Position numbers and translations under genes: made by a program | The notes under the pieces: generated by a model | Seen by the model: the letters and a program-made list of their open reading frames with translations, nothing else | The model's database searches: none | Told to the model about the DNA's origin: nothing | Source of the DNA: Escherichia phage UE-S1 | DNA: 64,000 nucleotides | Sequence record: ON568341.1 | Direction: 5' to 3' (one strand) | Part shown: piece by piece, positions 71 to 57,454 of the stretch | How positions within the stretch are numbered: position 1 is the first letter of the stretch | Layout of the letters: the number at the start of each line of letters is the position of its first letter

Positions 71-144
71 GGTCAGTTAGTTCAGTTGGTAGAACGCTTC
101 ACTTCATAATGAAGAACTTACAGGTTCAAATCCAGAACTGACCA
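71..144 (+). tRNA. tRNA-like element, atypical (possible pseudo-tRNA or variant tRNA)
   Basis: Acceptor stem GGTCAGT/ACTGACC, D-arm GTTC..GAAC, T-loop TTCAAAT; but anticodon stem CTTCA/TGAAG encloses an 8-nt loop CTTCATAA and T-stem has 2 mismatches. Confidence 0.3.
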
Positions 145-151
145 CAAAAAA

Positions 152-2330: not shown

Positions 2331-2855
<525 letters not shown>

Positions 2856-4774: not shown

Positions 4775-4848
4775 GCCTCAATAGCAAAATTGGTAATGCA
4801 CACGATTTGTAATCGTGAGATTTTTCCGTTCGAGTCGGAATTGGGGCA
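4775..4848 (+). tRNA. tRNA-Thr (anticodon TGT)
   Basis: Acceptor GCCTCAA/TTGGGGC (one G-U), anticodon stem CACGA/TCGTG with loop TTTGTAA, T-arm TTCCG-TTCGAGT-CGGAA; 6-nt variable loop. Confidence 0.65.
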
Positions 4849-4864
4849 CAAATAAAGGCACATT

Positions 4865-15732: not shown

Positions 15733-16686
15733 TTGAAAAAACTAGATTTGAATGCAATTGCAGATGAAGTACTGGACGAATGTTTTTCTAATGAAGAAGT
15801 CAATACACTTGATGCATTAGATTCAGTACAAGATGAAGATAAAGTTCAAAGTAATTTCAAGTTTAATATTAGTCTTAAGCGTCCACATAATGTAACAAAT
15901 GAAGATCTAATCCGTGATATTCAAGCTGGTATCAATGTTAAGAAAAACACTGAACTATTAGTTCGTTATAATTATGGACTAATTGTTGATGTTGCAAGTA
16001 AATGCACGTGTTATATCCCATTTGAAGATAAGATATCATATGGTATTGAGGGATTCATGCGAGCACTAAAAACATTTGATCTTAGTAAGAATGTTAAGTT
16101 CGTTACATACGCATCTTCCAGCATTTATATGACAGTATACAATGAAAGTTCAGATGCCAATCATCTGGTACATTTTCCACGCTATATGAGTGTTAATAAG
16201 ATACAAGTTAAACGCTTTTGTCATGAATATGAGCGTAAGCACGGTTGTCGTCCAACACCTGAACTAATTTCAGAGGGGACGGGAATTGAAATTCAACATG
16301 TAAAGAATTGTTTGTTATTCCAAAGTGAATATACTGCATTGGATGCACCATTGGATGGTGTTTCGGATGGTACGTTAAGTGATATTCTTCATACATCTGA
16401 TTGCGATTACAATCTTAATGTTGATAGTATTCGTGCACCTTTGCGTTATGTCATTAATGATCTAACACATGAATTGAGTACGAAAGAACGTGAAATTATC
16501 CAGCGTGTTCATGGTTTAGGTGAATTTAATCCTGAATCACTTCGTGAAATTGCTGATAGTGGTTTTGTTGATGACAATGGCAAATGTGTTAAATCAAGAT
16601 CATCTGTACACCGTAAATATAGTGAAGCTATAAAAAAACTTAAGAAATTAGTACTTGAAAAAGGGTACGAATACGAAGATTTCTAA
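15733..16686 (+). CDS. sigma-70-family-like protein (regions 2 and 4 recognisable)
   Basis: LVRYNYGLIVDVASK...GIEGFMRALKTFD...VKFVTYASSSIYM resembles sigma region 2; C-terminal SLREIADS..KSRSSVHRKYSEAIKKLKKL resembles region 4.2; TTG start after AGGAG. Confidence 0.5.
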   Translation: MKKLDLNAIADEVLDECFSNEEVNTLDALDSVQDEDKVQSNFKFNISLKRPHNVTNEDLIRDIQAGINVKKNTELLVRYNYGLIVDVASKCTCYIPFEDKISYGIEGFMRALKTFDLSKNVKFVTYASSSIYMTVYNESSDANHLVHFPRYMSVNKIQVKRFCHEYERKHGCRPTPELISEGTGIEIQHVKNCLLFQSEYTALDAPLDGVSDGTLSDILHTSDCDYNLNVDSIRAPLRYVINDLTHELSTKEREIIQRVHGLGEFNPESLREIADSGFVDDNGKCVKSRSSVHRKYSEAIKKLKKLVLEKGYEYEDF

Positions 16687-16693
16687 AGAACAA

Positions 16694-16720
16694 GGGTTGA
16701 CTTAGGTCAACCCTTTTTTT
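16694..16720 (+). terminator. intrinsic terminator
   Basis: GGGTTGACC-TTAG-GTCAACCC hairpin plus T7 run. Confidence 0.7.
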
Positions 16721-17348
16721 ATGGGACAAATTATAAAGTTATGATATACTTATTATGTACAATCCTGTTGAATGCAGAAATGCATATAAATGAGAACCTG
16801 ATCCTATCGAAAATGTAGATGGCAGATGAGCAGTTCAACAGTGCGATGAGCAGAAGAAACCCGTCAGATGTGGGCATAGTTTGAACCCCTCACGGCAATG
16901 CGGCTCAATAAAGAACCATGTTAGGATAGCTGATGGTTCCTTGATAGACATATAAGGATAACACCTTACGAATTATCTAAGGGAGAGTACTCAAATTTTG
17001 TACAAGAAAGTTGCGTCCAAAATTTGAGTACTCACATTAAGTATTTGATTGCATAGATACTTAATGAAGATACACTATGTTTAAAAGTGTAGACCGTCAT
17101 ATGAAACTGAAGTAGAGAGAAACAGGATGACCCGCTTTCGCACTCGTTATGAGTAATCTTCAATGCAATAGCTCTGATACCATCAGCGTCAAATTTCCCT
17201 CCGCAGTGGGGGGAAGAAAAATCACCTCCTCAAATCCCGTCAATATTAAAAGTCCTTGACAGTTATTAATCATTCGCGTAGAATACGTAGTATTAGAAGC
17301 GAACAGACATCTCGAAGAGATGGATGATTAACTATTGAGGAATTTCCA

Positions 17349-17558
17349 ATGAATTCAGTAATCTTTTTAGTAGTCGCTCTTTCAATTCAATCCGGTGTAC
17401 AAATTACCCCAATGAACTCAATGAACCAATGTTTTTCAGTACGTGACAGTACTTATGAACAAGTAAACCACATGTCACTTATGACAGTTAGTAAAGAAAG
17501 TATGTGGTGTTACAATAGTAATACTAACACAAAGCTTATTGTAGGACAAAATCAATGA
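17349..17558 (+). CDS. hypothetical protein (69 aa), hydrophobic N-terminus
   Basis: Track ORF; upstream TTGACA-17-TAGAAT promoter-like. Confidence 0.45.
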   Translation: MNSVIFLVVALSIQSGVQITPMNSMNQCFSVRDSTYEQVNHMSLMTVSKESMWCYNSNTNTKLIVGQNQ

Positions 17559-17785
17559 GTTATGGTGTTCGTTTTGAGATTCGTTCTATTATTATCAATG
17601 GCGAGAAACAAGCATCGTTGGATGGAGATATACGAGAAAAATATCTATCATGTATCCGTGCAAAATCTGAAGCAGATGCATTAGCACAAATGTATAGTTT
17701 TAACTTTTTTCATGGATACCATTTGGTACGAGTTATCGAAGTTACAAAAATAATTATAGATTGTAGCATGGAAGGATTAATGTAA
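17555..17785 (+). CDS. hypothetical protein (76 aa)
   Basis: Track ORF, ATGA overlap. Confidence 0.45.
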   Translation: MSYGVRFEIRSIIINGEKQASLDGDIREKYLSCIRAKSEADALAQMYSFNFFHGYHLVRVIEVTKIIIDCSMEGLM

Positions 17786-17786
17786 A

Positions 17787-18575
17787 ATGAGCACTATAGA
17801 TGAACTGATTCGACGGAATTCAAAATACTACAAACCATCAGAAATTGTAGGTAACATTACCAAATCAGAGTTTGGTCCAAATACTCGAAAACTAATTCAT
17901 GTAATGTCACGTGATGGCTTTAAATGTGATTGTTGTGGTGAATCCAATGTGGTATTCACTTTGCATAAGCACAGTACTAAAGACCGTTATAAATTCAGAC
18001 CTTATGTACTTAAAGGGAAACGCCTTGTACGCATGACGTTAGACCATAATGTACTGGACTGTCTTCAGGGTGGTAATGATAAAGAGAACATGACTGCATT
18101 ATGTGAAGATTGTAACGCATTACGCCAACATAAGTTTGCTGAGTACAGTGAGTTTAAACACTGGTATCATAATGCGGAACGTTCAATCGAGCCGGACGTT
18201 AACTACTGCTTCATTGAGTACATTAAGAATGCTAAAGATACATATATTCTTAAATCTATGGAACCAATTACCGTGTTTCCAATGAACCTATTCACTACAT
18301 TAAAGAATAGTTTTATGGTAGGTGATATTGATGCATTCAAGTATTTTGACAAAGGTGCAAAACATTTTGAAGTTCAATGTCTTAGTACTGCACTATGTGA
18401 ACTTATTAAAATTTACATAAAAGATTATTTGGGTATTGACAATGTACGCGTACCAGAGTATACTTTTTCTATTGATTTCGATTGTGAATCAATCAAAGAG
18501 TTTGGGATTCTTTTCAATAAACAAATAGAACTTGCAATTCAAAACGAAATCAAGTACTATAATACTAACATTTAA
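17787..18575 (+). CDS. HNH-motif nuclease-domain protein with Cys cluster
   Basis: CDCCGE and LDHNVLDCLQGGNDKENMTALCEDCNALRQHK match the HNH D-H..GG..N..C..C..K pattern. Confidence 0.55.
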   Translation: MSTIDELIRRNSKYYKPSEIVGNITKSEFGPNTRKLIHVMSRDGFKCDCCGESNVVFTLHKHSTKDRYKFRPYVLKGKRLVRMTLDHNVLDCLQGGNDKENMTALCEDCNALRQHKFAEYSEFKHWYHNAERSIEPDVNYCFIEYIKNAKDTYILKSMEPITVFPMNLFTTLKNSFMVGDIDAFKYFDKGAKHFEVQCLSTALCELIKIYIKDYLGIDNVRVPEYTFSIDFDCESIKEFGILFNKQIELAIQNEIKYYNTNI

Positions 18576-18590: not shown

Positions 18591-18773
18591 ATGCAAATCA
18601 TCATTCTTATCGTAGGTATCATTCTTGGTGTATATGGTCACTCCTGGATGAACGAGAAGTTCCCTAATACCCGTCCTGAGTATTGCAGTACTAATGTATT
18701 TCAGAATGGTGAGAAACCAAAGGAAAGTATTGGTAAAAAGCTGGACAAAGTACTTGATGTGATCAATGAATAA
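18591..18773 (+). CDS. small membrane protein (60 aa)
   Basis: N-terminal TM helix IIILIVGIILGVYG. Confidence 0.45.
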   Translation: MQIIILIVGIILGVYGHSWMNEKFPNTRPEYCSTNVFQNGEKPKESIGKKLDKVLDVINE

Positions 18774-19080: not shown

Positions 19081-19108
19081 TTGACATAAGATATCAGTAC
19101 TGTATAAT
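19081..19108 (+). promoter_or_regulatory. sigma-70-type promoter (TTGACA-16-TATAAT, TG-extended)
   Basis: TTGACATAAGATATCAGTACTGTATAAT. Confidence 0.6.
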
Positions 19109-19153
19109 GTTTATATCAAACGAAATCCACTTTAACAAATGATAGGAAATATT

Positions 19154-19432
19154 ATGTCTTTTTCTAAAGAAGAACGTGACCTTATTAAAAAAGCAATCTG
19201 GTTTTATGCTAATGAAGGGAAGTGCGATGAAGAAAAAGCACGTGAACTGTGTAATATCTTTGAGAAGAAACAAGATCTGAAAGTGTATCGTATCCGTGAT
19301 TTGGATGAAGGGGATCGTATTGTCCTAGCTGAAACAAAAGAAGAAGCAGAACAAATCTTCACTGATAAAAACGAAAATCCACATTGGATGGAAGAAGTCT
19401 GTGATGTTAAAAAAGGTACTTATATCGATTGA
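19154..19432 (+). CDS. hypothetical protein
   Basis: Track ORF 19139 trimmed to ATG after AGGAAA. Confidence 0.45.
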   Translation: MSFSKEERDLIKKAIWFYANEGKCDEEKARELCNIFEKKQDLKVYRIRDLDEGDRIVLAETKEEAEQIFTDKNENPHWMEEVCDVKKGTYID

Positions 19433-19457
19433 CAGAACTGAATAATAGCAGTATAAT
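19429..19457 (+). promoter_or_regulatory. sigma-70-type promoter (TTGACA-17-TATAAT)
   Basis: TTGACAGAACTGAATAATAGCAGTATAAT. Confidence 0.6.
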
Positions 19458-39480: not shown

Positions 39481-40626
39481 TTATTTTTTCCAAGGAAGTA
39501 ACGAAGTTGGAATCTTGATAGGTATATTTGATGCAGCAACATCAGGAAAATTTGCATCTCCACAAACATACAAATTATCGATTTCGTCAATCAATAATGT
39601 ATAGTTGTAACTTCTACAAAAACCGCTTAAGCCTCTTCCCTCTAATGCAGATAAATTCATTTCAGTGAATTGAGTTATATATGTTTCATTTGAACCAACA
39701 CCACATTGACCATTAGCATTTATACCACAAGTAAGCAATTTATTATTGTTTTGAATTACACATGATGGTCCAGCAAGGTTCGTACCTAGTTCACCTACAA
39801 CATTAACTTCACCTTTTAATGATAAATTTTGGATCACTGTACTCATAGGGACACGCGATGTATTTCCAACACCTGCTTGTCCTGAGCCATTAGTGGATGC
39901 AACTTTAACAGTACCGTCATTAAGAAAAATATAAGATGTTTCGATGGTATTAACTGCTTGTGTAGCTGTTGTTATTGTCGTATCCTGCTTGAATTTAAGT
40001 ACATTTGTTGTTGTTGAACCAGATATAAATGTAGCACCTGCGTACCAATAGGTTCCATCTTGAAGTACTAAACCAGTACTTCTAATTGAACACCCTGCAC
40101 TGCGAACATTTTCTATATGACTATATGTAAAGGTTGATACGATTGAAGATTCACCATTACCGAACACCCCACCAGTACCTGCACCACAGAAAAACCATTT
40201 ACCGTTTTTCAAAAATACACGCATACAAGCAGAAATAACCACACTATCAATATCACTTGCAGCTACACCAAAATCGGTAAAGAAATGAGTTATATCAATC
40301 CAATTACCACCAGTATTTGATGGGAGATGGGGAATTACAACTCTAGTCCCTGTGTACCAGATTGTATCATCATCTTTAATAACAAGAGTACCTTGAACAC
40401 CACCCCAATACCTTGTTACATTTGTATTAACAAGCCTCCACTCAGTAGATGATTCAGTGGAGCCATTACCACCTTGACCATAAGATGATGAGCCGTGCCA
40501 GTATAAATTTCCATTTTTATCTAAATAAAATTTTGCATCAGCCGAACATTGCAATCTGTATTTGAATACGGTTTTTGGTGCTGGTGCAATATTTGCATAT
40601 TTTAGCATTCTACCAAAAGGTAACAT
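39481..40626 (-). CDS. RCC1-like beta-propeller protein with conserved MLPFGRM N-terminus (array member 9, most downstream)
   Basis: N-terminus MLPFGRMLKYANIAP; repeats such as GSSSYGQGGNG, CGAGTGGVFGNG, CGINANGQCGVG. Confidence 0.7.
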   Translation of the reverse strand: MLPFGRMLKYANIAPAPKTVFKYRLQCSADAKFYLDKNGNLYWHGSSSYGQGGNGSTESSTEWRLVNTNVTRYWGGVQGTLVIKDDDTIWYTGTRVVIPHLPSNTGGNWIDITHFFTDFGVAASDIDSVVISACMRVFLKNGKWFFCGAGTGGVFGNGESSIVSTFTYSHIENVRSAGCSIRSTGLVLQDGTYWYAGATFISGSTTTNVLKFKQDTTITTATQAVNTIETSYIFLNDGTVKVASTNGSGQAGVGNTSRVPMSTVIQNLSLKGEVNVVGELGTNLAGPSCVIQNNNKLLTCGINANGQCGVGSNETYITQFTEMNLSALEGRGLSGFCRSYNYTLLIDEIDNLYVCGDANFPDVAASNIPIKIPTSLLPWKK

Positions 40627-40665
40627 AATTTTTCTCCTTCATTCATTATACTGTATTTAATCCAA

Positions 40666-40693
40666 TTAAGAAAAGCTAGTATCAAGTACTGGC
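40666..40693 (-). terminator. inter-cassette hairpin plus T-run
   Basis: GCTAGTA-TCAAG-TACTGGC with T-rich tract on minus strand. Confidence 0.5.
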
Positions 40694-40704
40694 ATTTAAA
40701 AGAA

Positions 40705-41880
40705 TCAAATTGTCGGAAGTGGGAATTCTTTCATCACCGATGAACTGTTTGCTGCAATATTATCAGGAGATTTACCAGCGTAGTATAATTTATTATTAAT
40801 AAACATATATAGCGTTGCATCGTTCCCTGCTACAAGAGAATTACTTTTCTTAAAAATAACCCCTGGGGGTAAAATAGCTTCAACAAATGAACCTGATTCT
40901 CGTGTTGAATTGTTTGCCAATTGACCATTATTATTATAACCAGTACTATAAATTTTACCTGAACTATAATACACAAGACCACGTGTACTAATGTTTTCTA
41001 TACGAATGAATTCACTATCGTCCGGTACTGTAGTTGATAGAACTGGGTATAACTTATAAGCTGATGTTACATTATTATTACCCAATTGACCATAACCTTG
41101 AAAGCCTAGTGCATACATAGGACATGATTCTGGTGTACCTTTTGTTATAATACCAATATAATTCGAACTACAAAAAATATCCACTGCTTCTACAACATTT
41201 GTACCCTTATATTGAACCCAAGGAAATACATATGATTGTTGTTTGCCATTACCCAAAACACCGGAAGTTGTTGTACCTGTACGCCACATTGTATCATCAA
41301 GTTTAATAATCCAGTTAGCAGTTGTTATAGTTGAACAGAATTTTTTAACATTATCAACCAAGTATGTAAATTTATTATAATATGATGCAGTGTTTATTCC
41401 AAATTTAGCACCAGTATTGTCACCTAACAAATATAAACTATTATCTGTACCTAAAATCAAAACATAATCATGACCCACGTATATCTTTTTGATTTTTGAA
41501 ATACCAAATTGTGTAAAATAGCTGGTACATTCAGTGAATATTGTTACATGATTTGATGTATTATTACCTAGCCATTTATCTAAACCACTATAAAAGAACC
41601 TATCATCATTTGTGCGTATTAGACAAAAAGAATTATTTGTACTGCACCAGAAATCTTTGACATTACTATATATTTTTGTCCATTCAGTTACTTGATTAGT
41701 ATGACCTAAACCAAAAATTCCACCATTTTGTAGTCCCATAGCCCATATTGAACCATTTTTATCAAGAAGCATTGTGCATGTAAATGAATACCCACACGCT
41801 GGAGTAACTAATTTAACAAAATTGGGAATATATGGTAAAACTTTATTCCCATAATTCACCATTCTTCCAAAAGGTAACAT
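40705..41880 (-). CDS. RCC1-like beta-propeller protein with conserved MLPFGRM N-terminus (array member 8)
   Basis: MLPFGRMVNYGN; repeats GYGQLGNNN, NNNGQLANNS. Confidence 0.7.
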   Translation of the reverse strand: MLPFGRMVNYGNKVLPYIPNFVKLVTPACGYSFTCTMLLDKNGSIWAMGLQNGGIFGLGHTNQVTEWTKIYSNVKDFWCSTNNSFCLIRTNDDRFFYSGLDKWLGNNTSNHVTIFTECTSYFTQFGISKIKKIYVGHDYVLILGTDNSLYLLGDNTGAKFGINTASYYNKFTYLVDNVKKFCSTITTANWIIKLDDTMWRTGTTTSGVLGNGKQQSYVFPWVQYKGTNVVEAVDIFCSSNYIGIITKGTPESCPMYALGFQGYGQLGNNNVTSAYKLYPVLSTTVPDDSEFIRIENISTRGLVYYSSGKIYSTGYNNNGQLANNSTRESGSFVEAILPPGVIFKKSNSLVAGNDATLYMFINNKLYYAGKSPDNIAANSSSVMKEFPLPTI

Positions 41881-41916
41881 ATTCTCTCCTTATTCATTAT
41901 AATATATATTTAATAC

Positions 41917-41948
41917 AAATAATAATGCCAGTACTCAAATACTGGCAT
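41917..41948 (-). terminator. inter-cassette hairpin plus T-run
   Basis: ATGCCAGTA-CTCAA-ATACTGGCAT. Confidence 0.5.
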
Positions 41949-41953
41949 TATTA

Positions 41954-43144
41954 TTACAATTGTCTAGGTGTATCCAGAACATATCTATTTGTGCTAGGAC
42001 CGCCATCATCATAAGTTCCGGTTGAATATATATTTTTCATATCAGCAGTTAGAAATGTACGATACGAACCTCTATATATTTTTATTTTATCATACATATT
42101 ATATGTAATTTGTGCTGGCATTGGACATATAGTAAATCTTCCAATAGTCCCCACTGAACCTACCCCCAATGAGCCAGCATAACTACTCGCATTTAAACCA
42201 GTTGCATATACACCAGAACTCGTAACTAGTATACTAGATTGTGATGGGTATCCAGTATGAATTGAATACAAAGTTCCAGGTGGTAATGTCGTACTATTTC
42301 TCCCTAATACAGCAAGTGCCGAACTGGATGTGGTATTATTACCCCATGCACCATTACTTGCTAAACCACCAACTAGGAACTGACGTACACCCGTACTTGG
42401 ATTTTCCACCAAAGCACTGACTGAACCCATTGAGCATCCAGTGTATTGTAACGTTTTTGTGTATGTTGTACTTGGCTGATATAAAGTATATTCATTATAT
42501 AAAGTCCATGTAGTACTGGAACTTATACCGGATGTACCACCACCAATATATAAATTATTTTGTTTATCAAACAACATTACACAGTTATTTGTTGACATTA
42601 TTTGTGCAATATCAACATTAGGTGTTACTGCTTTTACAAATGAACCATCTGTTATTTGTTGAGTTTTTCCAGTACCATCAGCGAATTGTCTAGCCCCACT
42701 CCAACCAGTACTCCATATTGTATTATTATCCATTAAGAAAGTAAACCACGTAGTACCTGCATACATCTGTTTAATTGAAGTACTTGAACTTTGTTTGTAC
42801 AAATTTTCAATATATTGGTTATAACTTAAAAATGATGTAGTACTGGTTGGTAAACCAATATGACTACCAAATCCACAATAGAAATAATTTAAGTCATTAT
42901 CTTGAACTAACAAAGTTCCTTGTGTGATCCAGCAATCATTAACGTTTTCTCTAATTAATGTCCATGTTCTTAATGCAGTGTTGTTTCCTCTCCCAAACTG
43001 CCCAAAACTATTATTACCTCGTGCATATAGTTGACCATCAGTATAAAGTACAACAACATCAGTATCGGTTGTTAGTATTTTCTTAATTTGAAGTGGGATA
43101 GGTACAATATTCCCGTACTTAACCATTCTTGCAAAAGGTAACAT
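41954..43144 (-). CDS. conserved-N-terminus family protein, beta-propeller-like (array member 7)
   Basis: MLPFARMVKYGNIVP; G/S/T/N-rich with NSFGQFGRGNN repeat. Confidence 0.65.
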   Translation of the reverse strand: MLPFARMVKYGNIVPIPLQIKKILTTDTDVVVLYTDGQLYARGNNSFGQFGRGNNTALRTWTLIRENVNDCWITQGTLLVQDNDLNYFYCGFGSHIGLPTSTTSFLSYNQYIENLYKQSSSTSIKQMYAGTTWFTFLMDNNTIWSTGWSGARQFADGTGKTQQITDGSFVKAVTPNVDIAQIMSTNNCVMLFDKQNNLYIGGGTSGISSSTTWTLYNEYTLYQPSTTYTKTLQYTGCSMGSVSALVENPSTGVRQFLVGGLASNGAWGNNTTSSSALAVLGRNSTTLPPGTLYSIHTGYPSQSSILVTSSGVYATGLNASSYAGSLGVGSVGTIGRFTICPMPAQITYNMYDKIKIYRGSYRTFLTADMKNIYSTGTYDDGGPSTNRYVLDTPRQL

Positions 43145-43180
43145 ATTTTCCTCCTTTATTCATTATACTATATTTAATCA

Positions 43181-43208
43181 AAAAGAAAAGCCAGTATCAA
43201 GTACTGGC
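43181..43208 (-). terminator. inter-cassette hairpin plus T-run
   Basis: GCCAGTA-TCAAG-TACTGGC; minus strand followed by TTTTCTTTT. Confidence 0.55.
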
Positions 43209-43215
43209 CTATATT

Positions 43216-43953
43216 TTAGACTGAATTGTTAGGATAATATCTCCCCCTTCCCCATATTATTCGCACAGCACCACCACCAGCAGCCGTATAAGAAGAATTA
43301 TCCCATATACTACCACCACCACCATACCTCTTACCAGCACCACCACTACCAGCACCACCATTATATGAACCACCGTAGCTACCACCAATACCATTAGCAC
43401 CTTGAACAATGATACCAGTACCACCACCCGTACCAATGAACGAGGTACTATAGAATGTACCACCCCCACCGCCGCCACCAGCACCATTTTCACCAGTGAT
43501 TGCATCTCCGTTACCACCTTTACCAGTGTAGCCACCAGCACCACCACCAATGACTGCACCACCACTTACACCAGTGTTGCCACCATTACCACCACCATCA
43601 TTAATAGCGTTAGCAGCTTTTCCACCTAGTCCACCAACCGTATATGCACCAGTGAAGCTAACACATAGTTTTTCAGTTCCACGATATAAACCGTTTTCAA
43701 CTGCTGTAGTAGTGTTGGGATGTGTAAGAGAAACACTTAAGTACTCACCACCAGAAACCGGAATATTATTACGCCACGATAAGCCGCCACCAGCACCACG
43801 TTGACCACCCGGCGAAATAACACATACTGATATTTCGGTAACGCCAGCAGGAACTGTAAATTGTGTTGTTCCTATTGTCGTGATTAATTGTTCACCATGT
43901 GGCTTATATTCAATTTTATTCCCGAACTTAACCATTCTTCCAAAAGGTAACAT
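43216..43953 (-). CDS. conserved-N-terminus family protein with glycine-rich body (array member 6)
   Basis: MLPFGRMVKFGN then long GGxGG tracts. Confidence 0.65.
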   Translation of the reverse strand: MLPFGRMVKFGNKIEYKPHGEQLITTIGTTQFTVPAGVTEISVCVISPGGQRGAGGGLSWRNNIPVSGGEYLSVSLTHPNTTTAVENGLYRGTEKLCVSFTGAYTVGGLGGKAANAINDGGGNGGNTGVSGGAVIGGGAGGYTGKGGNGDAITGENGAGGGGGGGTFYSTSFIGTGGGTGIIVQGANGIGGSYGGSYNGGAGSGGAGKRYGGGGSIWDNSSYTAAGGGAVRIIWGRGRYYPNNSV

Positions 43954-43990
43954 AATTCCCTCCTTTATTTGTTATACTATATTTAATACA

Positions 43991-44018
43991 AAAAGAAAAG
44001 CCAGTACTCAGTACTGGC
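43991..44018 (-). terminator. inter-cassette hairpin plus T-run
   Basis: GCCAGTACT-CA-GTACTGGC. Confidence 0.55.
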
Positions 44019-44024
44019 ATAATG

Positions 44025-45167
44025 TCAATAAGTATCCCAAGGTAATGGTGTCTTCCTAAATCCATACCTGGTTGTGCTCGCACCATCACCAGCAATGTAT
44101 CTACCTATACCACATTGGTATAACTCTGTACTACTACATATAGCACCACCTATAGTACCACTACTCCACTGAATTATATTAGAATATGTTATTGGTAAAT
44201 CACTACATTTAGTATATACAGCAACGGTAGAAGCACCACTAATACCACCAAACATACTTCGCTTAGCACCAGTGTAATATATACCATCTGGACTCATAAA
44301 TGCAGAGGTGTAAGTTGTACTGCAATCCACTGGACTTCTTATTGTATTAAGATCGCCTGGATATGTTCTGACACCAAAGGTGTATACATTACCATCAGTT
44401 GTAATACCATTACCTAACTGCCCACTGTTTTGTCCACCACATGTAAGCAACGATGCAGAACCAGAAACAATTGCAGTAGCATTATACGAAGTGCCCATTG
44501 CAATAGAAGCACCAGACAATAGTTTTGGAGTAACAATAGCTGTTGTATTACCCTGGCCTAATTCACCATTTGTGTTTCGTCCCCATGCGTATATGGAAGT
44601 AGTATCCAACCTACATAGTACTGAACCATAACTAAACGTATATCGCATGTCAATTACCGCAGAAGGCAAATTAACCTTAGTTGCAACACTAATAACACCA
44701 CCAGTAACACCACTGTTTGCGTTCATGTTACGACCATATGCATATAAAGAACCATCTGAAGTTTTAATATGCATCATACCATCTGTACAATATAATGCAT
44801 CTATACTCTCCACCGCAACCGGACCCATACTGGTAGTTATATCGGTCCACCCAAGAGTAGTAGTACTAGAAATTAAGTTATTTCCTGCGTATAGTATTCT
44901 ATTATTATTAGTAACTACAACTGTATATCTGGCAGTAACACCAATTAATCGAACATCAGTATATATCTTAGACCACGCACCTAATGAATTGGTGTTTGCA
45001 TCCAAAAAGCCCAACTGCCCATCTGTATTGTATCCAATGCCCCATACATCACCTGCACTGTCCAATAACACTTCATGTGAAAATCCAATCTTAAAATCTT
45101 TTATTGTAGGAACTACCGGATCTGGTGCAATATTCCCGTACTTAACCATTCTAGTAAAAGGTAACAT
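44025..45167 (-). CDS. RCC1-like beta-propeller protein with conserved N-terminus (array member 5)
   Basis: MLPFTRMVKYGNIAP; repeats GYNTDGQLGF, GRNTNGELGQGN, GGQNSGQLGNG. Confidence 0.7.
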   Translation of the reverse strand: MLPFTRMVKYGNIAPDPVVPTIKDFKIGFSHEVLLDSAGDVWGIGYNTDGQLGFLDANTNSLGAWSKIYTDVRLIGVTARYTVVVTNNNRILYAGNNLISSTTTLGWTDITTSMGPVAVESIDALYCTDGMMHIKTSDGSLYAYGRNMNANSGVTGGVISVATKVNLPSAVIDMRYTFSYGSVLCRLDTTSIYAWGRNTNGELGQGNTTAIVTPKLLSGASIAMGTSYNATAIVSGSASLLTCGGQNSGQLGNGITTDGNVYTFGVRTYPGDLNTIRSPVDCSTTYTSAFMSPDGIYYTGAKRSMFGGISGASTVAVYTKCSDLPITYSNIIQWSSGTIGGAICSSTELYQCGIGRYIAGDGASTTRYGFRKTPLPWDTY

Positions 45168-45203
45168 AATTCCCTCCCTTATTCATTATAATATATTTAA
45201 TAC

Positions 45204-45234
45204 AAAAAAGAAAAGCCAGTACTTGAGTACTGGC
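45204..45234 (-). terminator. inter-cassette hairpin plus T-run
   Basis: GCCAGTACT-TG-AGTACTGGC. Confidence 0.55.
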
Positions 45235-45240
45235 ATTATG

Positions 45241-46350
45241 TTATTTTGGTAAATCAATTTTAGTAAAGACTGCAACATCCTCGCTTGCCCCAGGAATGGC
45301 GTAATACGATCCAGTACTATATACATCTCCGTCTTTGGTTAATATTGATGTTAAACCATCACTAAAAAGAACATCCCTAATCTCACTAACTTCAACGGGT
45401 AATTGTAAATTAGTAGCACTATATATTGCACCAGTTTGAGAATTGTTTAATCCCAAACCACGGTTCGCCCCAACACCCTTCTGATATGTACTAGTAATTA
45501 TCATTTGTGTAGCAGTATTTAAGGCAGGTGAATTCGTCATAAACAACGGAGAACTATTAGGCAAAGTACTTGCAGGAACTGCACGAAATGAAGTTGTATC
45601 TGAACTAAGAAAGTTTGGCGTTTGACCACATACGAAATATGATGTACCATTATAGTAATTAAATGCATTACCACCAATGACTGCATCGATTACACCAGAG
45701 CTACGTAATCCCCACGTGTTAATTTGTGTTCGGTTCCCCGTGCCATGCTGACCCCTGTCATTCCACCCAGAACTATATAACTTATTATCTAATGTAATAT
45801 ACATACTGTCATTTGCATTCGTCATTACTTTACGCACATTAGTAGCACATTGAGTTAATGTGTAAATTGATGATGAACCAATACCTAAAGCACCACGATA
45901 TCCATTAGCTCCTGCACCATAGAGTACTGAACTAGTGCTAAGTACAAATATTAAACCATACGAACATACAATATTAGCAATTTCACTCACTGGTATAGCA
46001 CTGGTAAACCAATTAGTTCTTTCAACTAATACTGTGCTGTAAGAAGTAGTTGTAGACGATGTGAACCAATATGTTTCCCCTGATGTCCATATAGTATTAT
46101 CATTTTTAATAATAACAAGTGCACGATCACCTACGAAAAAATTAGAAACATCTGCACTTACTAATATCCATGAAGATACCGTGTTTTTATTACCATTTCC
46201 AGATTCACCACCTTGATTTCTACCTATGTAATATAAATCATGTGAATCAGTTAATAAGAATTGACCCTGTGTAGATGCACCAACTTTAATTATATTTTTA
46301 GGACCAGGTACAATATTCCCATAATCAAACATTCTTACAAAAGGTAACAT
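45241..46350 (-). CDS. RCC1-like beta-propeller protein with conserved N-terminus (array member 4)
   Basis: Track ORF to 46365; start moved to internal ATG (MLPFVRMFDYGNIVP) with GGAG 9 nt upstream. Confidence 0.65.
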   Translation of the reverse strand: MLPFVRMFDYGNIVPGPKNIIKVGASTQGQFLLTDSHDLYYIGRNQGGESGNGNKNTVSSWILVSADVSNFFVGDRALVIIKNDNTIWTSGETYWFTSSTTTSYSTVLVERTNWFTSAIPVSEIANIVCSYGLIFVLSTSSVLYGAGANGYRGALGIGSSSIYTLTQCATNVRKVMTNANDSMYITLDNKLYSSGWNDRGQHGTGNRTQINTWGLRSSGVIDAVIGGNAFNYYNGTSYFVCGQTPNFLSSDTTSFRAVPASTLPNSSPLFMTNSPALNTATQMIITSTYQKGVGANRGLGLNNSQTGAIYSATNLQLPVEVSEIRDVLFSDGLTSILTKDGDVYSTGSYYAIPGASEDVAVFTKIDLPK

Positions 46351-46387
46351 AACTAAAATCTCCATATAATAATTATAATGTATTTAC

Positions 46388-46420
46388 AAAAAAATACCAG
46401 CACATATTTCAGTACTGGTA
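46388..46420 (-). terminator. inter-cassette hairpin plus T-run
   Basis: TACCAG..AGTACTGGTA stem with T7 on minus strand. Confidence 0.5.
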
Positions 46421-46425
46421 TAATG

Positions 46426-47607
46426 TTATGGTAAAATAATAGCTTGTAACGAACTCATACCCAATGTTGGAACACTCGCCTGTGGTGCTGGAGAATTCAA
46501 TTTTGGTGATGAAACCGCATATGACATTCCTGAACCCAAATCTGGATCAAAAACTACAGCACAATAATTCCCACTATATATAAGTCCATTCTTGTATCCT
46601 TGTGCACTTTGAATGCATTTCGTGAACGTACCAATATCTGTAGTGGCATTTATTAAGTTCCTCCCACGATAACCGCAGGTGTATATGAAATTATCATCGC
46701 CTATGTACATACTAGAATCCCCAGAAGAACTACATAGATACGACATATAAGCACGCATGTTTTTAGGAGCAACTGACAATGTACCTGCATAGAATTTATT
46801 ATTCGAACCCGTAATATTACCATCACCCAATGCACCAAAACTTCCCCAGCCAGTACCGTAATATCTCTTATCACTCAAAAATATAATACAGTTGTTATTA
46901 CACATCTTGATTTGATATATCAATGAAGGATCAATCCCAGGGAATGATTCAGTGAATGTTAGAACAGCCGGATCAGTACTAGCATTACATTGATGATATG
47001 TATTAGTACCAGCGGACAAGATTGTTCCATTAGCTAACAGAATTCTCGCAGTACCAGTACCAGCAGTACAAGCAACTGCACTTCCTGCACTTCCGGTGTA
47101 TATTTGTCTGAAAGTAAAGAAACCAACAGTTTTACTTCCCTGCCCACTCCAACCAGTATTATCAACTCCACACGCCCATACTGAACCATCTTGCATGATC
47201 ATCATTACACCAAAGCGTTCTATTGAAATATAAACAATCTTCGTTGTATCAACTGCACTAAATCTAGAAGTTATATCAGTCCATACCTTAACACTTACCG
47301 CCGTCGCACTGGAAGTAGGATCTTCACCAGCTATCATTATCCTCCCATTGTTAGTAAGATACATTGTCTGACTATAACCAGTACTACAAAACTTAACACT
47401 ATCAGTCTCTGGAACTTTTAACCACTCGTTGTAACGTGTTACGTTAGTGTTATTACCTAACTGATAATAGTTATTCATCCCAGATACATATAACACACCA
47501 TCCTTTATTAAACTATAAGTCGCACTATAGTCACTACAGGTATAACGTGTACCCACAGGTGGCTCAACGACGTTCCCGTACTTAACCATTCTCCCAAAAG
47601 GTAACAT
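46426..47607 (-). CDS. RCC1-like beta-propeller protein with conserved N-terminus (array member 3)
   Basis: MLPFGRMVKYGNVVEP; repeats NNYYQLGNN, DNTGWSGQGS, GSFGALGDGN. Confidence 0.7.
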   Translation of the reverse strand: MLPFGRMVKYGNVVEPPVGTRYTCSDYSATYSLIKDGVLYVSGMNNYYQLGNNTNVTRYNEWLKVPETDSVKFCSTGYSQTMYLTNNGRIMIAGEDPTSSATAVSVKVWTDITSRFSAVDTTKIVYISIERFGVMMIMQDGSVWACGVDNTGWSGQGSKTVGFFTFRQIYTGSAGSAVACTAGTGTARILLANGTILSAGTNTYHQCNASTDPAVLTFTESFPGIDPSLIYQIKMCNNNCIIFLSDKRYYGTGWGSFGALGDGNITGSNNKFYAGTLSVAPKNMRAYMSYLCSSSGDSSMYIGDDNFIYTCGYRGRNLINATTDIGTFTKCIQSAQGYKNGLIYSGNYCAVVFDPDLGSGMSYAVSSPKLNSPAPQASVPTLGMSSLQAIILP

Positions 47608-47642
47608 AATAAAATCTCCGTAATTAAATTATATAGTATTTA

Positions 47643-47676
47643 CAAAAAATACCAGTACATATTTCAGTACTGACCT
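47643..47676 (-). terminator. inter-cassette hairpin plus T-run
   Basis: CAGTAC-loop-GTACTG palindrome with T-run. Confidence 0.5.
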
Positions 47677-47680
47677 ATTA

Positions 47681-48802
47681 TTAAAAGGGCAACGGTAACT
47701 CAGTAAAAGTACTTACGTCCGGTAAACCATACATTAAATTAGCATCACCACAGTAATACCACTTCGTAGAATCATGTACCACCGATAAACGCTGTGCACA
47801 TAACACTTCCTGTATGTCATTAAACACCATCGGGACTAACTCATATGTATCTGCAAATGAAGATTCACTACCACTCGCATGAAAAGTATTTGTCCCAGCA
47901 TAAAATAACTGATTAGTGTTCTTACCCACAGCAAATGTTATCAAAACCCCATCATTCTCCCATAAAGAAGAAAACTTATCAACACTACCAGAAAGCTCTG
48001 TGTAAGTACTCGTAATGGCACTCGCCGCCGCCGCATTACCCATCTGTTTATTCAAGTTCTGTCCAGCAATAAAATATCTCGTTCGTGCACTAGAATCAGT
48101 ATATAATAACCCAGTGTTCGTAGTCATCATTCCAATGTCCTTAATCGTCATATCAGTCTGTGAATAACTTAGATACGAAGTTAAATTAACATTATTACCC
48201 AACGAACCGTTAGAACTCATGCCACAACGATGTAATATACCACTTGTATCAACGTAGATAGTACTAACTAAACTCGTATACAACTCTTGTACATTATTCG
48301 CAATAAACACAGCAGTCGCCTTATTACTAACCCCACCAAATGATAGGTTATTATCAAATCCCTTAGCGTATAATTGATTATTAGTAGTCAATAATCCAAT
48401 CGTGTAATAAGACATTTTCATATCCCTTACTGTACTCAAATCTACTGCCCCAAATTGATACGTAACATCTGTCCATTTGAAAATCTGTGCACTACCAACA
48501 CCACCCGTTTCAAACCATTTGTCACCACAGTACAATATGCGATTATCCTTAGTAAAGATAACTGTTAACAATCCACTACCACACGCAAACTTTACATCAC
48601 TTCTAACCTTCGTCCAATCAAGTACATAGGTAGTGGTGTTATTACCTATACCTAACTTGCCATAACGGTTATAACCACGCACCCATAAATCACCACTCTT
48701 AGTAATTAATAGTAATGCGTCTCCTGTACTTATTATTCGAAATCCCGAACTAGGATCAGGGGCAATATTCCCGTACTTAACCATTCTCCCAAAAGGTAAC
48801 AT
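47681..48802 (-). CDS. RCC1-like beta-propeller protein with conserved N-terminus (array member 2)
   Basis: MLPFGRMVKYGNIAPDP; repeats GYNRYGKLGIGNN, SSNGSLGNN. Confidence 0.7.
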   Translation of the reverse strand: MLPFGRMVKYGNIAPDPSSGFRIISTGDALLLITKSGDLWVRGYNRYGKLGIGNNTTTYVLDWTKVRSDVKFACGSGLLTVIFTKDNRILYCGDKWFETGGVGSAQIFKWTDVTYQFGAVDLSTVRDMKMSYYTIGLLTTNNQLYAKGFDNNLSFGGVSNKATAVFIANNVQELYTSLVSTIYVDTSGILHRCGMSSNGSLGNNVNLTSYLSYSQTDMTIKDIGMMTTNTGLLYTDSSARTRYFIAGQNLNKQMGNAAAASAITSTYTELSGSVDKFSSLWENDGVLITFAVGKNTNQLFYAGTNTFHASGSESSFADTYELVPMVFNDIQEVLCAQRLSVVHDSTKWYYCGDANLMYGLPDVSTFTELPLPF

Positions 48803-48837
48803 ATTTTCCTCCTTTATTCATTATACTATATTTAATA

Positions 48838-48869
48838 CAAAAAGAAATGCCAGTATCAAGTACTGGCAT
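48838..48869 (-). terminator. inter-cassette hairpin plus T-run
   Basis: ATGCCAGTA-TCAAG-TACTGGCAT. Confidence 0.55.
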
Positions 48870-48875
48870 ATTAAT

Positions 48876-50024
48876 TCATTGTATAAATGACATATCTACT
48901 TCTGTATAATTAAGAACGTTCTGTCCAGAAATACCACCCATTACTACTATTGCAAGGCCACAATAATATAATTTTCCAGTATCCGTAAGTATAAGTGATC
49001 CAGATGGACTGCGTACCAAATCACACGAACTATTAAAAGAAGTATAAGAAGGAGTATAGGAGTACTGATTATTATTATTACCAACACCTAATTGCCCAAA
49101 CCCATTCGATCCAGAAGCATATAGAACTTCATCTGCTTTGACAATATGTGATGCCATGTTACCAACACAAGTATATAGAGTATAAACTCCTGAACTCAAT
49201 AATGTCGGAGTTTTATATTGTATATCTGTAGATGTAGAAGTACCACCTGTACCAAATTCGTTCCCATATTGTGCACCGAACTGTTTGCCACAAGCGTACA
49301 AATTATTATCCGATTTGATAAAAAATGTACTCTGATAACTTACATTAAAATCTATAACATCCGAAGAAATCATCGTCACCCCAGTAATAGAAGTTTGATT
49401 ACCCGTGCCCAACTGGTAGTAATAGTTAAAACCACAACCCCATAAAGTATTATCTTCTCGCAAATAAATGTTACCAACTGCCTTTTTAACCGAAGTTATA
49501 GTATCTACTCTTTTGAATGTGTTAAAAGAATTAATGTTTGTACCATCACCAAATGATGATATGTTCGATATATTGTTAACTCCACAACAATACAATGTAC
49601 CATCTTTTGTTATCAAATTCACCTTCATATCATAAAAACTACTCATGTATTTTATATCAGAAACATTAACACCACTTGATGTTATCCACGTAGTACAGTC
49701 CGTCCACAAAGTTTTTCTATCAGTTACACCAGTGAATGCCTTCGTGTTACCAGTGATAAAAACTTTTCCAGTACCTTTCTCTTCATACAATTGACAATCA
49801 CTACTGTTATCTTCCAATAGAACTCGTTTAACATTCTCCGCACAAAGAATAAATTTACTCGATGCTACACCTGTACCAGTACCCCAATTCGTCGCAGAAG
49901 ATGCATACAACTTATCAGTATAAGTATCATGAAGATACATAGAATCACTGGAATATATTTTAAAACGCCCTTCTTTCTCAGGTATAATATTCCCGTACTT
50001 AACCATTCTCCCAAAAGGTAACAT
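48876..50024 (-). CDS. RCC1-like beta-propeller protein with conserved N-terminus (array member 1, most upstream)
   Basis: MLPFGRMVKYGNIIPE; repeats GFNYYYQLGTGN, GSNGFGQLGVGNN. Confidence 0.7.
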   Translation of the reverse strand: MLPFGRMVKYGNIIPEKEGRFKIYSSDSMYLHDTYTDKLYASSATNWGTGTGVASSKFILCAENVKRVLLEDNSSDCQLYEEKGTGKVFITGNTKAFTGVTDRKTLWTDCTTWITSSGVNVSDIKYMSSFYDMKVNLITKDGTLYCCGVNNISNISSFGDGTNINSFNTFKRVDTITSVKKAVGNIYLREDNTLWGCGFNYYYQLGTGNQTSITGVTMISSDVIDFNVSYQSTFFIKSDNNLYACGKQFGAQYGNEFGTGGTSTSTDIQYKTPTLLSSGVYTLYTCVGNMASHIVKADEVLYASGSNGFGQLGVGNNNNQYSYTPSYTSFNSSCDLVRSPSGSLILTDTGKLYYCGLAIVVMGGISGQNVLNYTEVDMSFIQ

Positions 50025-50066
50025 ATTCCCTCCTTATTCATTATATCATATTTACCCAAAAAACAC

Positions 50067-50095
50067 TTGACACCCTTTCAGTACTGTTGTACAAT
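50067..50095 (+). promoter_or_regulatory. sigma-70-type promoter (TTGACA-17-TACAAT)
   Basis: TTGACACCCTTTCAGTACTGTTGTACAAT in divergent intergenic region. Confidence 0.5.
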
Positions 50096-50120
50096 AGAAG
50101 GAATATTAGGAGAACTACAT

Positions 50121-55452: not shown

Positions 55453-55548
55453 GGATTGATTCAGTACTGAATAATAGTACTCCTATATAGAAAGATAGTT
55501 CCCCTGGATTGATTCAGTACTGAATAATAGTACTCCTATATAGAAAGA
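55453..55548 (+). repeat. tandem direct repeat (~43-bp unit, 2 copies, period ~53)
   Basis: GGATTGATTCAGTACTGAATAATAGTACTCCTATATAGAAAGA twice. Confidence 0.8.
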
Positions 55549-55579
55549 AAACTATTTTAAAAGTATTTGTAGAAAGTAC

Positions 55580-55607
55580 TTGCACAGTACTGAAAAAAGC
55601 GTATAAT
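55580..55607 (+). promoter_or_regulatory. early-type sigma-70 promoter (TTGCAC-16-TATAAT) followed by 5-prime stem-loop 55624-55636
   Basis: Conserved AGTACTTGCA..GCGTATAATGTTTTACATC module then GGGAA-CAC-TTCCC. Confidence 0.6.
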
Positions 55608-55661
55608 GTTTTACATCGAGAGCGGGAACACTTCCCTACTCACTTTTAAGAGATTAAAACG

Positions 55662-56024
55662 ATGGCGACTCAAATCACTAAAATCATTGCTAACCTGGTT
55701 AACTTCCGCGACGATATGAAAGATCTTCCGGCGGCAACGGTTAAAACTCACATTGACGCATACCGCGAACTGATTAAAATGTTGCCGCTTAAGCGTGAAC
55801 AATACGCCGCTAAACTGATGCTTGATGCGATGATCCATAAGATGATCGCCAGTGATTTGACGATGGTTTATCAGTATATGGGCGAAAATTTCGCGGTGTA
55901 TAGTAAACCAGTACCAGGAATGGAAAGTACAGAAGTATTACACGGTTTAAATTTAAAACAAGATGCATGGGATAATATGCCTCGTTTCCTGGTATGGGCT
56001 GACAGTGGCAAAATTTACGAATAA
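55662..56024 (+). CDS. hypothetical protein (120 aa)
   Basis: Track ORF; own promoter and 5-prime hairpin. Confidence 0.6.
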   Translation: MATQITKIIANLVNFRDDMKDLPAATVKTHIDAYRELIKMLPLKREQYAAKLMLDAMIHKMIASDLTMVYQYMGENFAVYSKPVPGMESTEVLHGLNLKQDAWDNMPRFLVWADSGKIYE

Positions 56025-56037
56025 GTTAAAAATTAGT

Positions 56038-56065
56038 TTGACAGTACTGAATAAAAGCGTATAAT
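56038..56065 (+). promoter_or_regulatory. early-type promoter (TTGACA-16-TATAAT) followed by stem-loop 56078-56096
   Basis: TTGACAGTACTGAATAAAAGCGTATAAT then GTGGGGAA-TAG-TTCCCCAC. Confidence 0.6.
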
Positions 56066-56116
56066 GTTTTACATCAGGTGGGGAATAGTTCCCCACTATA
56101 TAAGAGGATTAAAAAA

Positions 56117-56356
56117 ATGGCTAAATCAAAAATGTTCTTAGGTCACAAAAACAAAACTCATTGGAATGTAAGCCTGTGGATTAATAACGATGAGGGATTG
56201 TATCGGTTGGCCCTGGACTTTATTGCCGCCCATACTAATCGCAATGATGCGGCCCGTCATATGATGTTATTTTTAGAACAGACTGGACAAGATAAAACAC
56301 CGGACGGATTCAAATATAGCACTACTGCGATCCGTGCGGCGATGGTTGGAATGTAA
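56117..56356 (+). CDS. hypothetical protein, paralogue of 58157-58396
   Basis: Track ORF trimmed to ATG after AGAGGA; conserved GHKNKTHWNVSLWINN and PDGFKYSTTAIRAAMVGM. Confidence 0.55.
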   Translation: MAKSKMFLGHKNKTHWNVSLWINNDEGLYRLALDFIAAHTNRNDAARHMMLFLEQTGQDKTPDGFKYSTTAIRAAMVGM

Positions 56357-56442
56357 TAGAATTTATTTAAAGTACTATCATTTTTTTGCGATAGTACTTT
56401 ATAATAGTGTTTTATTCATACACCAACGATAAGGGCAACAGC

Positions 56443-56709
56443 ATGAATATTAAGTATTTTGCGACGCGTGAACAAGCTCGGATCGCCGCACGCCAGGACG
56501 GGGCAACGTTTAAAGATATGGGCGTACAATCGGAACGTGGTAAACGTTGGGCCATTGTAAAGCGTAGTACCGCCAGATCATTACAGTACTGGTTAGCGGC
56601 CTTAAAAAGTCCCGATAGTGTATCGCGTCGAGTGGTAGAAATAAAGCTCGACCGAAAGGGCAACCGCGTGACTGTGTACCGTACTAAAAAGATTGCAGTA
56701 CTTGAATAA
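56443..56709 (+). CDS. hypothetical protein
   Basis: Track ORF trimmed to ATG at MNIKYFATRE. Confidence 0.45.
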   Translation: MNIKYFATREQARIAARQDGATFKDMGVQSERGKRWAIVKRSTARSLQYWLAALKSPDSVSRRVVEIKLDRKGNRVTVYRTKKIAVLE

Positions 56710-56716
56710 AAAGTAC

Positions 56717-56744
56717 TTGCAAACTATGTTTAAAGGCGTATAAT
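56717..56744 (+). promoter_or_regulatory. early-type promoter (TTGCAA-16-TATAAT) followed by stem-loop 56759-56775
   Basis: TTGCAAACTATGTTTAAAGGCGTATAAT then GCGGGAA-CTC-TTCCCGC. Confidence 0.6.
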
Positions 56745-56796
56745 GTTTTACATCGAGAGCGGGAACTCTTCCCGCCTATAACCTGGAGTAATAAAA

Positions 56797-57027
56797 ATGA
56801 CTAATATGTATATGACTGAAGTTAAAACCGTAAAAGATACTACCACGAATAAAACTACTTACTTACAGCGGATCTGTGGTGTATGGCAACGTATCAGCAA
56901 ATCAAAGTACTTTAAATTAACATCATATGCAAACCGTTCGGATTCATTCAGTACTGAAATAAAAGGTAATAAAGTACACCAATACGGCACTTATTATTAT
57001 TACAGCCTGGACGCGATTGCAGTATAA
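56797..57027 (+). CDS. hypothetical protein (76 aa)
   Basis: Track ORF after promoter, hairpin and GGAG RBS. Confidence 0.55.
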   Translation: MTNMYMTEVKTVKDTTTNKTTYLQRICGVWQRISKSKYFKLTSYANRSDSFSTEIKGNKVHQYGTYYYYSLDAIAV

Positions 57028-57278: not shown

Positions 57279-57306
57279 TTGCTAACTATGTTTAAAGGCG
57301 TATAAT
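57279..57306 (+). promoter_or_regulatory. early-type promoter (TTGCTA-16-TATAAT) with stem-loop but no ORF
   Basis: Promoter and ACGGGG..CCCCGT hairpin with no ATG before the next promoter. Confidence 0.5.
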
Positions 57307-57422: not shown

Positions 57423-57454
57423 ACTTACATCAACTACTGAATGAGGGTTACAAA

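Follow-up and report, generated by a model that had tools for sequence, protein, structure and literature searches.

The closest described counterparts of the gene studied here are gp170 of phage 121Q (AIT14060.1), already entered as "HNH endonuclease" in GenBank, and its orthologues in PBECO4, ph0011 and WPEC5, among others, whose entries are annotation only. In the paper on phage CBB, the HNH genes of this supergroup were given the same annotation-level label, that of the homing type (PMC5259590). The free-standing HNH homing endonucleases of the T-even phages (MobA-E type) stand alone between conserved genes, are patchily distributed and non-essential, and in these respects resemble our gene. 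PhiPA3 gp210 is an intron-encoded HNH homing endonuclease that takes part in phage-phage competition and has a mapped target (PMC11620839). At the level of the nuclease domain, the layout CxxC...DH...N...CxxC-N/H and the fold are shared with the EcoKMcrA nuclease domain, the Gme HNH and the phage GVE2 HNH.

We analysed a stretch of 64,000 nucleotides from Escherichia phage UE-S1 (ON568341.1), referred to below as the window, of which the DNA in this region is ~93-94% identical to that of 121Q/PBECO4-like jumbo coliphages (320-385 kb, genus Asteriusvirus). The gene and the features around it are, by window position:

16792-17252, plus strand: candidate large structured RNA, a ~460-nt gene-free stretch between a terminator (16692-16715) and the putative operon promoter
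17256-17284, plus strand: sigma-70-type promoter-like site TTGACA-N17-TAGAAT, found by scan, heading the 69-aa/76-aa/HNH string
17349-17558, plus strand: left flanking gene, 69 aa, kept in all lineages including RaK2 (tblastn synteny)
17528-18552, no strand: presence/absence block relative to HNH-less Asteriusviruses, which have 73-94 bp in its place
17555-17785, plus strand: 76-aa ORF, homologue of 121Q gp169, coupled to the HNH gene in translation and deleted along with it
17787-18575, plus strand: HNH endonuclease gene, 262 aa, with ATG start in the ORF listing, orthologue of phage 121Q gp170
17787-17921, plus strand: N-terminal basic helical region, aa 1-45 (model helices 4-10, 17-20 and 31-43; pI 9.7)
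17799-18329, plus strand: HNH module, aa 5-181, absent in frame from phage A4 (blastn breakpoints 17797/18331)
17922-18176, plus strand: zinc-finger HNH (beta-beta-alpha-metal) core, aa 46-130, with C47/C50, D86-H87, N101, C106/C109 and N110
18177-18311, plus strand: family-specific extension or linker, aa 131-175, from the family alignment, with the conserved N139 motif NYCxIDFxKN
18312-18572, plus strand: C-terminal orphan helical domain, aa 176-262, with two deeply diverged alleles in the genus
18436-18464, plus strand: sigma-70-type promoter-like site TTGACA-N17-TATACT (11/12), found by scan inside the C-terminal coding region
18591-18773, plus strand: right flanking gene, 60 aa, a small membrane-protein gene by its N-terminal hydrophobic helix (tblastn synteny in L012, L013 and RaK2)

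The first-pass annotation had described a 262-aa ORF with CDCCGE and an HNH core, not beside tRNA genes, and each of these points was confirmed. The ORF has 262 codons and an ATG start, its translation places CDCCGE at residues 47-52, LDHNV at 85-89, GGND at 95-98, N101 and LCEDCN at 105-110, with CxxC pairs at 47-50 and 106-109, and the closest tRNA gene (4775-4849) lies ~13 kb away. Chance is an inadequate explanation of the ORF, because it is kept in ~30 related phage records and its dN/dS is low. The orthologues are the same gene at the same position with the same neighbours, and amino acid identity was 95-97% for the window-type allele, as in the annotated HNH endonucleases of 121Q, PBECO4 and ph0011, or 79% for the WPEC-type allele. 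The protein matched PHROG 35175 with E=5.6e-183 and in fact defines this family, and tblastn gave no paralogue inside the 64-kb window. With no substantive difference from 121Q gp170 and its orthologues, this is an ordinary zinc-finger HNH gene of a 121Q-like jumbo coliphage, already annotated in relatives.

Relative to 121Q, the dN/dS was 0.11 for the whole gene and 0.016 for the HNH core, which for the selection counts was taken as residues 31-130 (13 synonymous changes and 1 non-synonymous). For the core, the comparison with WPEC5 gave 10 synonymous changes, 0 non-synonymous changes and a dN/dS of 0, and that with L012, a 58%-identical relative, a dN/dS of 0.14. Judging from these counts, the protein is maintained in a functional state by purifying selection, which is very strong on the core.

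The Pfam search that had been proposed as a check on the HNH assignment returned matches below the gathering score for the protein itself, both for PF01844 (HNH; 15.7 bits vs 21.4) and for PF14279 (HNH_5; 15.0 bits vs 27.5). PHROG HNH families also matched, and among 26 aligned family members HNH_5 was matched by 21 proteins (best E 6.3e-7) and HNH by 18 (best E 3.4e-6), in both cases at E<=0.01. In the family alignment C47, C50, H87, N101, C106 and C109 were invariant and D86 and N110 nearly so, and the four invariant cysteines form a CCCC zinc finger that frames the HNH motif. The AlphaFold model built on this alignment had a pLDDT of 87.3, and by model and fold comparison the protein has the beta-beta-alpha-metal fold. 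The assignment was thus borne out by the PHROG and family profiles, the invariant catalytic and zinc residues and the fold; because of the family matches, the invariant residues and the confident model, the protein belongs to the CCCC zinc-finger HNH enzymes of the "H-N-N" type. In structure and NCBIfam comparisons the core came closest to the HNH domains of Cas9 and IscB, and sequence and profile searches of the PDB gave nothing significant. H87 would serve as general base, the catalytic metal would be bound by N110 and D86, and a structural zinc by C47/C50/C106/C109; by its residues and model, it is plausible that the protein cuts DNA as an active metal-dependent endonuclease.

Compared to the EcoKMcrA, Gme and GVE2 domains, our protein has an insertion of ~35 residues forming a beta-hairpin between the first CxxC and the DH, and adds the family-specific helical extension and the orphan C-terminal domain. 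The window holds another HNH gene at 2331-2855 (plus strand), among tRNA genes, which is of the NUMOD4 + HNH_3 homing type (Pfam E=6e-10 and 4e-7) and unrelated to the gene at 17787-18575. Like the MobA-E type, it is a stand-alone, patchy and non-essential gene between conserved genes. The protein studied here differs from both in being of the CCCC zinc-finger HNH/HNH_5 type and not HNH_3, in lacking NUMOD, IENR1 and HTH, and in its long vertical residence. PhiPA3 gp210, as a jumbo-phage HNH nuclease in which selfish and competitive roles coincide, offers a model for our gene; it differs in being intron-encoded and from a nucleus-forming phiKZ-like phage, and the likeness considered here is that of the HNH motif (PMC11620839).

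The C-terminal region of ~120 residues had initially been set apart as unrelated to the HNH half. This needs to be qualified: residues ~112-175 extend the HNH domain and are conserved in the family (R113, FAEYxEFKxWY, N139), with lower model confidence at 131-160, and residues ~176-262 form a separate helical domain that occurs in more distant family members too. Residues 1-45 could be aligned across the family. For aa 176-262 no fold match was found, making this an orphan fold, and Pfam detected no NUMOD, IENR1 or HTH DNA-binding modules in the protein. Since the C-terminal domain is acidic in the window allele (pI 4.7) and mildly basic in the others, a conserved sequence-specific DNA-binding role for it is doubtful.

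Between the window and WPEC5, nucleotide identity fell to 0.61-0.65 exactly over 18300-18575, compared to 0.86-1.0 in the flanks, and dS was 1.35 in the C-terminal part vs 0.20 in the core. Only this segment stands out from the flanks, as an island of low identity. These values indicate that the C-terminal domain exists as two old alleles within Asteriusvirus; an orphan domain with two such alleles is a modestly useful aspect of the family. We do not over-read the divergence, because mosaicism is common in the region, including the sigma-factor gene. The HNH module was also considered as a recently spread island of high identity and this was rejected, as its identity is like that of the flanks. 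The sigma-factor gene (15733-16686, plus strand) is itself strongly mosaic between Asteriusvirus subgroups, its 3' half having an identity to WPEC5 of 0.51-0.64 vs 0.8-1.0 in neighbouring DNA.

The HNH gene stands alone, free of intron or intein, between the 69-aa and 60-aa genes, which are adjacent or nearly so in gene-less relatives. It belongs to a run of small genes without known function downstream of the phage sigma-factor gene; these are its neighbours, and no terminase or portal genes lie nearby. The ORFs of the 69-aa/76-aa/HNH string overlap or abut, the start of the 76-aa ORF overlapping the upstream stop (ATGA) and its own stop lying 1 nt before the HNH start. The promoter-like site at 17256-17284 occurs at the same place in the related loci L002 and L005, and together with the gene layout it suggests that the string is early and read by the host RNA polymerase. 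The 76-aa ORF belongs to PHROG 28392, of which the function is not annotated, and ECO103 4-12-1, JNE01 and Turkey5 lack both it and the HNH gene. It was rejected as a conserved partner, having no family annotation and being absent beside the HNH gene in the metagenomic contigs L012 and L013.

The embedded promoter-like site at 18436-18464 has an unchanged codon position in 121Q, WPEC5, WPEC3 and L012, and in A4 the match is 12/12; the site is kept despite saturated synonymous divergence around it and is absent in the L013 lineage. The 60-aa gene directly follows the HNH gene or the empty site in four syntenic lineages (Asteriusvirus, L012, L013 and RaK2), and a comparable site occurs in the short remnant of gene-less phages and in the RaK2 gap. 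The embedded site presumably drives transcription of the 60-aa and 72-aa genes that follow.

A comparison with related genomes lacking the gene had been proposed in the search for a target-site insertion. Such genomes exist (ECO103 4-12-1, JNE01, Turkey5, EC22.5-2 and A4), and the states were mapped by pairwise blastn breakpoints and junction alignments. Most Asteriusviruses carry the 76-aa ORF and the HNH gene. ECO103 4-12-1, JNE01 and Turkey5 are without window positions 17528-18552/18571, that is, both ORFs, and in the 73-94 bp found instead lie a near-consensus promoter and the next gene's ribosome-binding site. EC22.5-2 matched in flanking DNA only, like the gene-less phages, and gave no HNH protein match. 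In the third state, that of A4, the 76-aa ORF has a homologue, and an 87-aa ORF joins MSTI directly to the C-terminal domain (MSTI|NAFKHLDKG), with just 3-4 nt of microhomology at the junction; its C-terminal gene has 91.6% DNA identity to the WPEC5-type allele, and its upstream genes 72%. A second HNH copy elsewhere was found in none of the gene-less phages.

No target-site insertion was supported: the gaps resemble deletion scars in an anciently occupied locus, and no virgin insertion target was seen. The ECO103 remnant resembles the promoter region inside the HNH gene (score 41 vs a shuffle maximum of 31), a similarity that may partly reflect the shared promoter consensus and is kept as supporting evidence only, and the same shuffle test gave no significance for the JNE01 and Turkey5 remnants. 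RaK2 has both flanking genes and a promoter-bearing gap of 65 bp between ORF248 and the homologue of the 60-aa gene. ORF248 (296 aa), at a similar position, was rejected as a diverged family member (hhalign probability 0.3%). Taken over these genomes, the gene is dispensable and appears to have been lost by deletion several times, at least three of them independent (the RaK2 lineage, the ECO103/JNE01/Turkey5 lineage and A4).

Both kinds of deletion leave a promoter-like site ahead of the 60-aa gene, and we infer that the embedded DNA doubles as a downstream promoter and constrains how the nuclease gene is lost: both kinds of loss would keep a 3' piece because it holds this putative promoter. 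The locus would thus be an example of a promoter within a nuclease gene limiting the routes of gene loss. In Salmonella phage SD-1_S14 (OR699183.1 165646-166397) and in CMSTMSU (MH494197.1 182654-183428), the matches to the HNH orthologue come in 2-3 pieces and are annotated as two ORFs, which could be decaying pseudogenes or sequencing frameshifts.

In a HMMER scan of 1.84 billion representatives, 94 family proteins were found at E<=1e-3. The family is almost confined to RaK2/121Q-related jumbo phages and is conserved down to ~20% identity. L012 and L013, one of them 324 kb, encode full-length homologues that are 58% and ~40-41% identical, in the same order of sigma factor ... 69-aa gene ... 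HNH and then a homologue of the 60-aa gene. The HNH and sigma-factor identities run in parallel, with 58% vs 64% in L012 and 40% vs 44% in L013. The gene occupies one locus in Asteriusvirus, L012 and L013, and probably in 7t3-like phages. Because of the shared synteny in L012 and L013, the divergence that tracks the flanks and the scar-like gene-less alleles, it is best seen as an old resident, in place since before the genus diverged and sporadically deleted. No virgin target site or recent invasion was found in the compared genomes. Horizontal spread was not indicated, as divergence tracks the flanks and the empty alleles look scar-like with the promoter-like site kept, a reading drawn from sequence identities and allele structure. 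The gene neighbourhoods of the homologues in GAP32 and Yersinia fHe-Yen9-03 are unrelated to this one, and of seven phages outside the genus that carry a homologue, six match at two places in the genome; over longer times the family has therefore moved.

As to function, the first-pass annotation had offered a free-standing homing endonuclease or a nuclease of DNA metabolism or packaging. Homing is still plausible, and a packaging or essential DNA-metabolism role was not supported, on account of dispensability, the early-gene setting and the separate endonuclease VII homologue in relatives. We favour, with about even confidence, an active free-standing HNH endonuclease of the homing or competition type, dispensable in single infection and maintained via mixed infections, in the manner of PhiPA3 gp210 and the free-standing T-even nucleases. 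The gene would be accessory and early, transcribed with two small ORFs from a promoter of host type; in mixed infection the enzyme would cut the genome of a relative lacking the gene or carrying a sensitive allele. The break would then be mended with the carrier genome as template, which transfers the gene, or the cut would put the rival at a disadvantage, or both. The stand-alone gene and its presence or absence at the same site among close relatives are as expected of homing; a recognisable sequence-specific DNA-binding module was not found. Against homing also stand the lack of recent movement and of a virgin target, and a C-terminal domain that is orphan and acidic. The allele series (full gene, module deleted in frame, cassette deleted) makes the homing or competition reading testable by crossing existing isolates.

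The main alternative, given less confidence, is a domesticated, non-mobile nuclease that benefits the phage, for host-DNA degradation or nicking, for attack on superinfecting phages or plasmids, or for anti-defence, with the C-terminal domain as a partner-binding or dimerisation module. The long stay at one locus with divergence tracking the flanks fits such a role, as do the very strong purifying selection on the core, a window-allele C-terminal domain that is not DNA-binding-like, and the position among early genes with host-type promoters. The gene has been lost independently at least three times with no paralogue in replacement, which speaks against it, and it has no conserved linked partner, the 76-aa ORF being genus-specific. 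Profiles of defence systems gave no significant match either; membership in such a system was rejected, the matches being just weak REase_II ones outside the HNH core.

It is very unlikely that the protein is a structure-specific resolvase, debranching DNA like T4 endonuclease VII, or a packaging helper such as the terminase-associated HNH of HK97. It does share the zinc-finger beta-beta-alpha-metal layout CxxC...DH...CxxC-N with T4 endonuclease VII and has a weak match to a PHROG 'endonuclease VII' (E=0.054). However, Pfam Endonuclease_7 was not matched even at E<=10, several close relatives dispense with the gene, in both respects unlike T4 endonuclease VII (gp49), and the endonuclease VII homologue of related phages is a different gene (CBB_248, PMC5259590; 7t3_0443). 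Packaging is opposed by the same dispensability and by the setting beside a sigma-factor gene and small ORFs, where HK97 gp74-type genes adjoin terminase and portal genes.

The candidate structured RNA lies ~0.5 kb upstream of the HNH gene, as a single copy in the 64-kb window. The stretch is 99-100% conserved within Asteriusvirus and ~70% identical in Eneladusvirus, Mimasvirus and 7t3-like phages, and the element was found at 257 places in 61 jumbo-phage records, with 3-5 copies per genome. All eight copies fetched from other phages (8/8) lie in a gene-free gap of ~600 bp and are oriented as the flanking genes. An alignment of 10 sequences had 88 consensus pairs, of which 46 showed compensatory double changes. 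Pairing covered 95.6% of its cells, compared to 79.8% after shuffling and 33-48% when the register was slid, and only on the plus strand do the G-U pairs fit. Nine copies gave no Rfam match at gathering or permissive thresholds, no literature on the element was found, and a resemblance to conserved RNase P motifs had no Rfam match in support. From its pairing and conservation, the element looks like an undescribed large structured RNA; it is more unusual than the HNH gene nearby and merits separate evaluation.

A profile search detected a diverged copy in RaK2 under "ORF245" (NC_019526.1, L011 1933-2389), which overlaps it, and syntenic copies in L012, L013 and 7t3. Copies are likewise overlapped by 7t3_079-081 (L008 756-1165), GAP32_503A (L018 480-593) and several 'hypothetical protein' ORFs of WPEC5 and SHEFM2K; such small ORFs over the RNA copies are probably mis-annotations. 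In 7t3 (MK773491.1 243625-244320, L021) one copy adjoins 7t3_0443, a gene annotated as T4-type endonuclease VII.

That the HNH protein and this RNA form a functional pair, as an RNA-associated or RNA-guided nuclease like IscB with its omega-RNA, we consider even less probable. A copy lies 0.5-1.7 kb upstream of an HNH homologue in four lineages (window, L012, L013 and 7t3), both are part of a block whose synteny is ancient, and the closest similarities of the core are to the HNH domains of Cas9 and IscB. This similarity is at the domain level only: the protein has no RuvC, bridge helix or RNA-binding part, and NCBIfam guided_IscB scored 20 bits against a cutoff of 175, with the HNH segment alone aligning. 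Neither the RuvC + PLMP domains nor the HEARO omega-RNA of IscB were found, and other Rfam families were unmatched as well. Phages that have lost the HNH gene (RaK2, JNE01, Turkey5, EC22.5-2 and A4) still carry the RNA, and for this reason we treat it as independent of the gene. Moreover, there are 3-5 RNA copies per genome vs 1-2 HNH genes, none within 3 kb of the GAP32 or Yen9-03 homologues, and the RNA and the gene have separate promoter-like sites. In a less exotic variant, the two C-terminal alleles may be specificity or immunity types in nuclease competition between co-infecting jumbo phages.

Least probable of all is an inactive relic whose ORF is retained only for the downstream promoter in its DNA: the embedded promoter-like site is conserved, A4 retains the promoter-bearing part only and split copies may exist in SD-1_S14 and CMSTMSU, but this site takes up 29 bp out of 789, none of the catalytic and zinc residues varies within a family that reaches down to ~20% identity, and the dN/dS of the core is 0-0.14.

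Some further features of the window were observed. A presence/absence block at ~19100-19450, absent in WPEC3 and present in WPEC5 and 121Q, contains a 97-aa ORF (19139-19432) whose homologue in A4 bears the annotation sigma-70 family protein. It has a promoter-like site on either side, at 19081 and at 19429, both with a perfect 12/12 match. Repeat family D8, at 16692-16750 and also at 25158, 29294, 33791 and 35075, comprises the terminator hairpin AAGGGTTGAC...GTCAACCCTTTTTT; a TTGAC -35-like element lies within this hairpin and a TATAAT-like -10 comes after it. The module looks like a combined terminator-promoter unit. A paper on phage fEgEco12 offered no usable information on the DNA modification status of the genus. 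A tRNA gene at 71-145 (plus strand; Rfam tRNA 51.8 bits) has a four-base anticodon (tcat) and was given an undetermined identity by ARAGORN; it may have an unusual anticodon loop or be a frameshift-suppressor-like tRNA. Two arrays of intergenic repeats lie at 55500-63900 (plus strand) and 40600-50100. One has 11 copies of the promoter-like AAAGTACTTGCA-N17-GCGTATAATGTTTTACATC with a GC hairpin and then a ribosome-binding site behind it, and the other has nine copies of a 79-nt unit at a spacing of ~1.2 kb.
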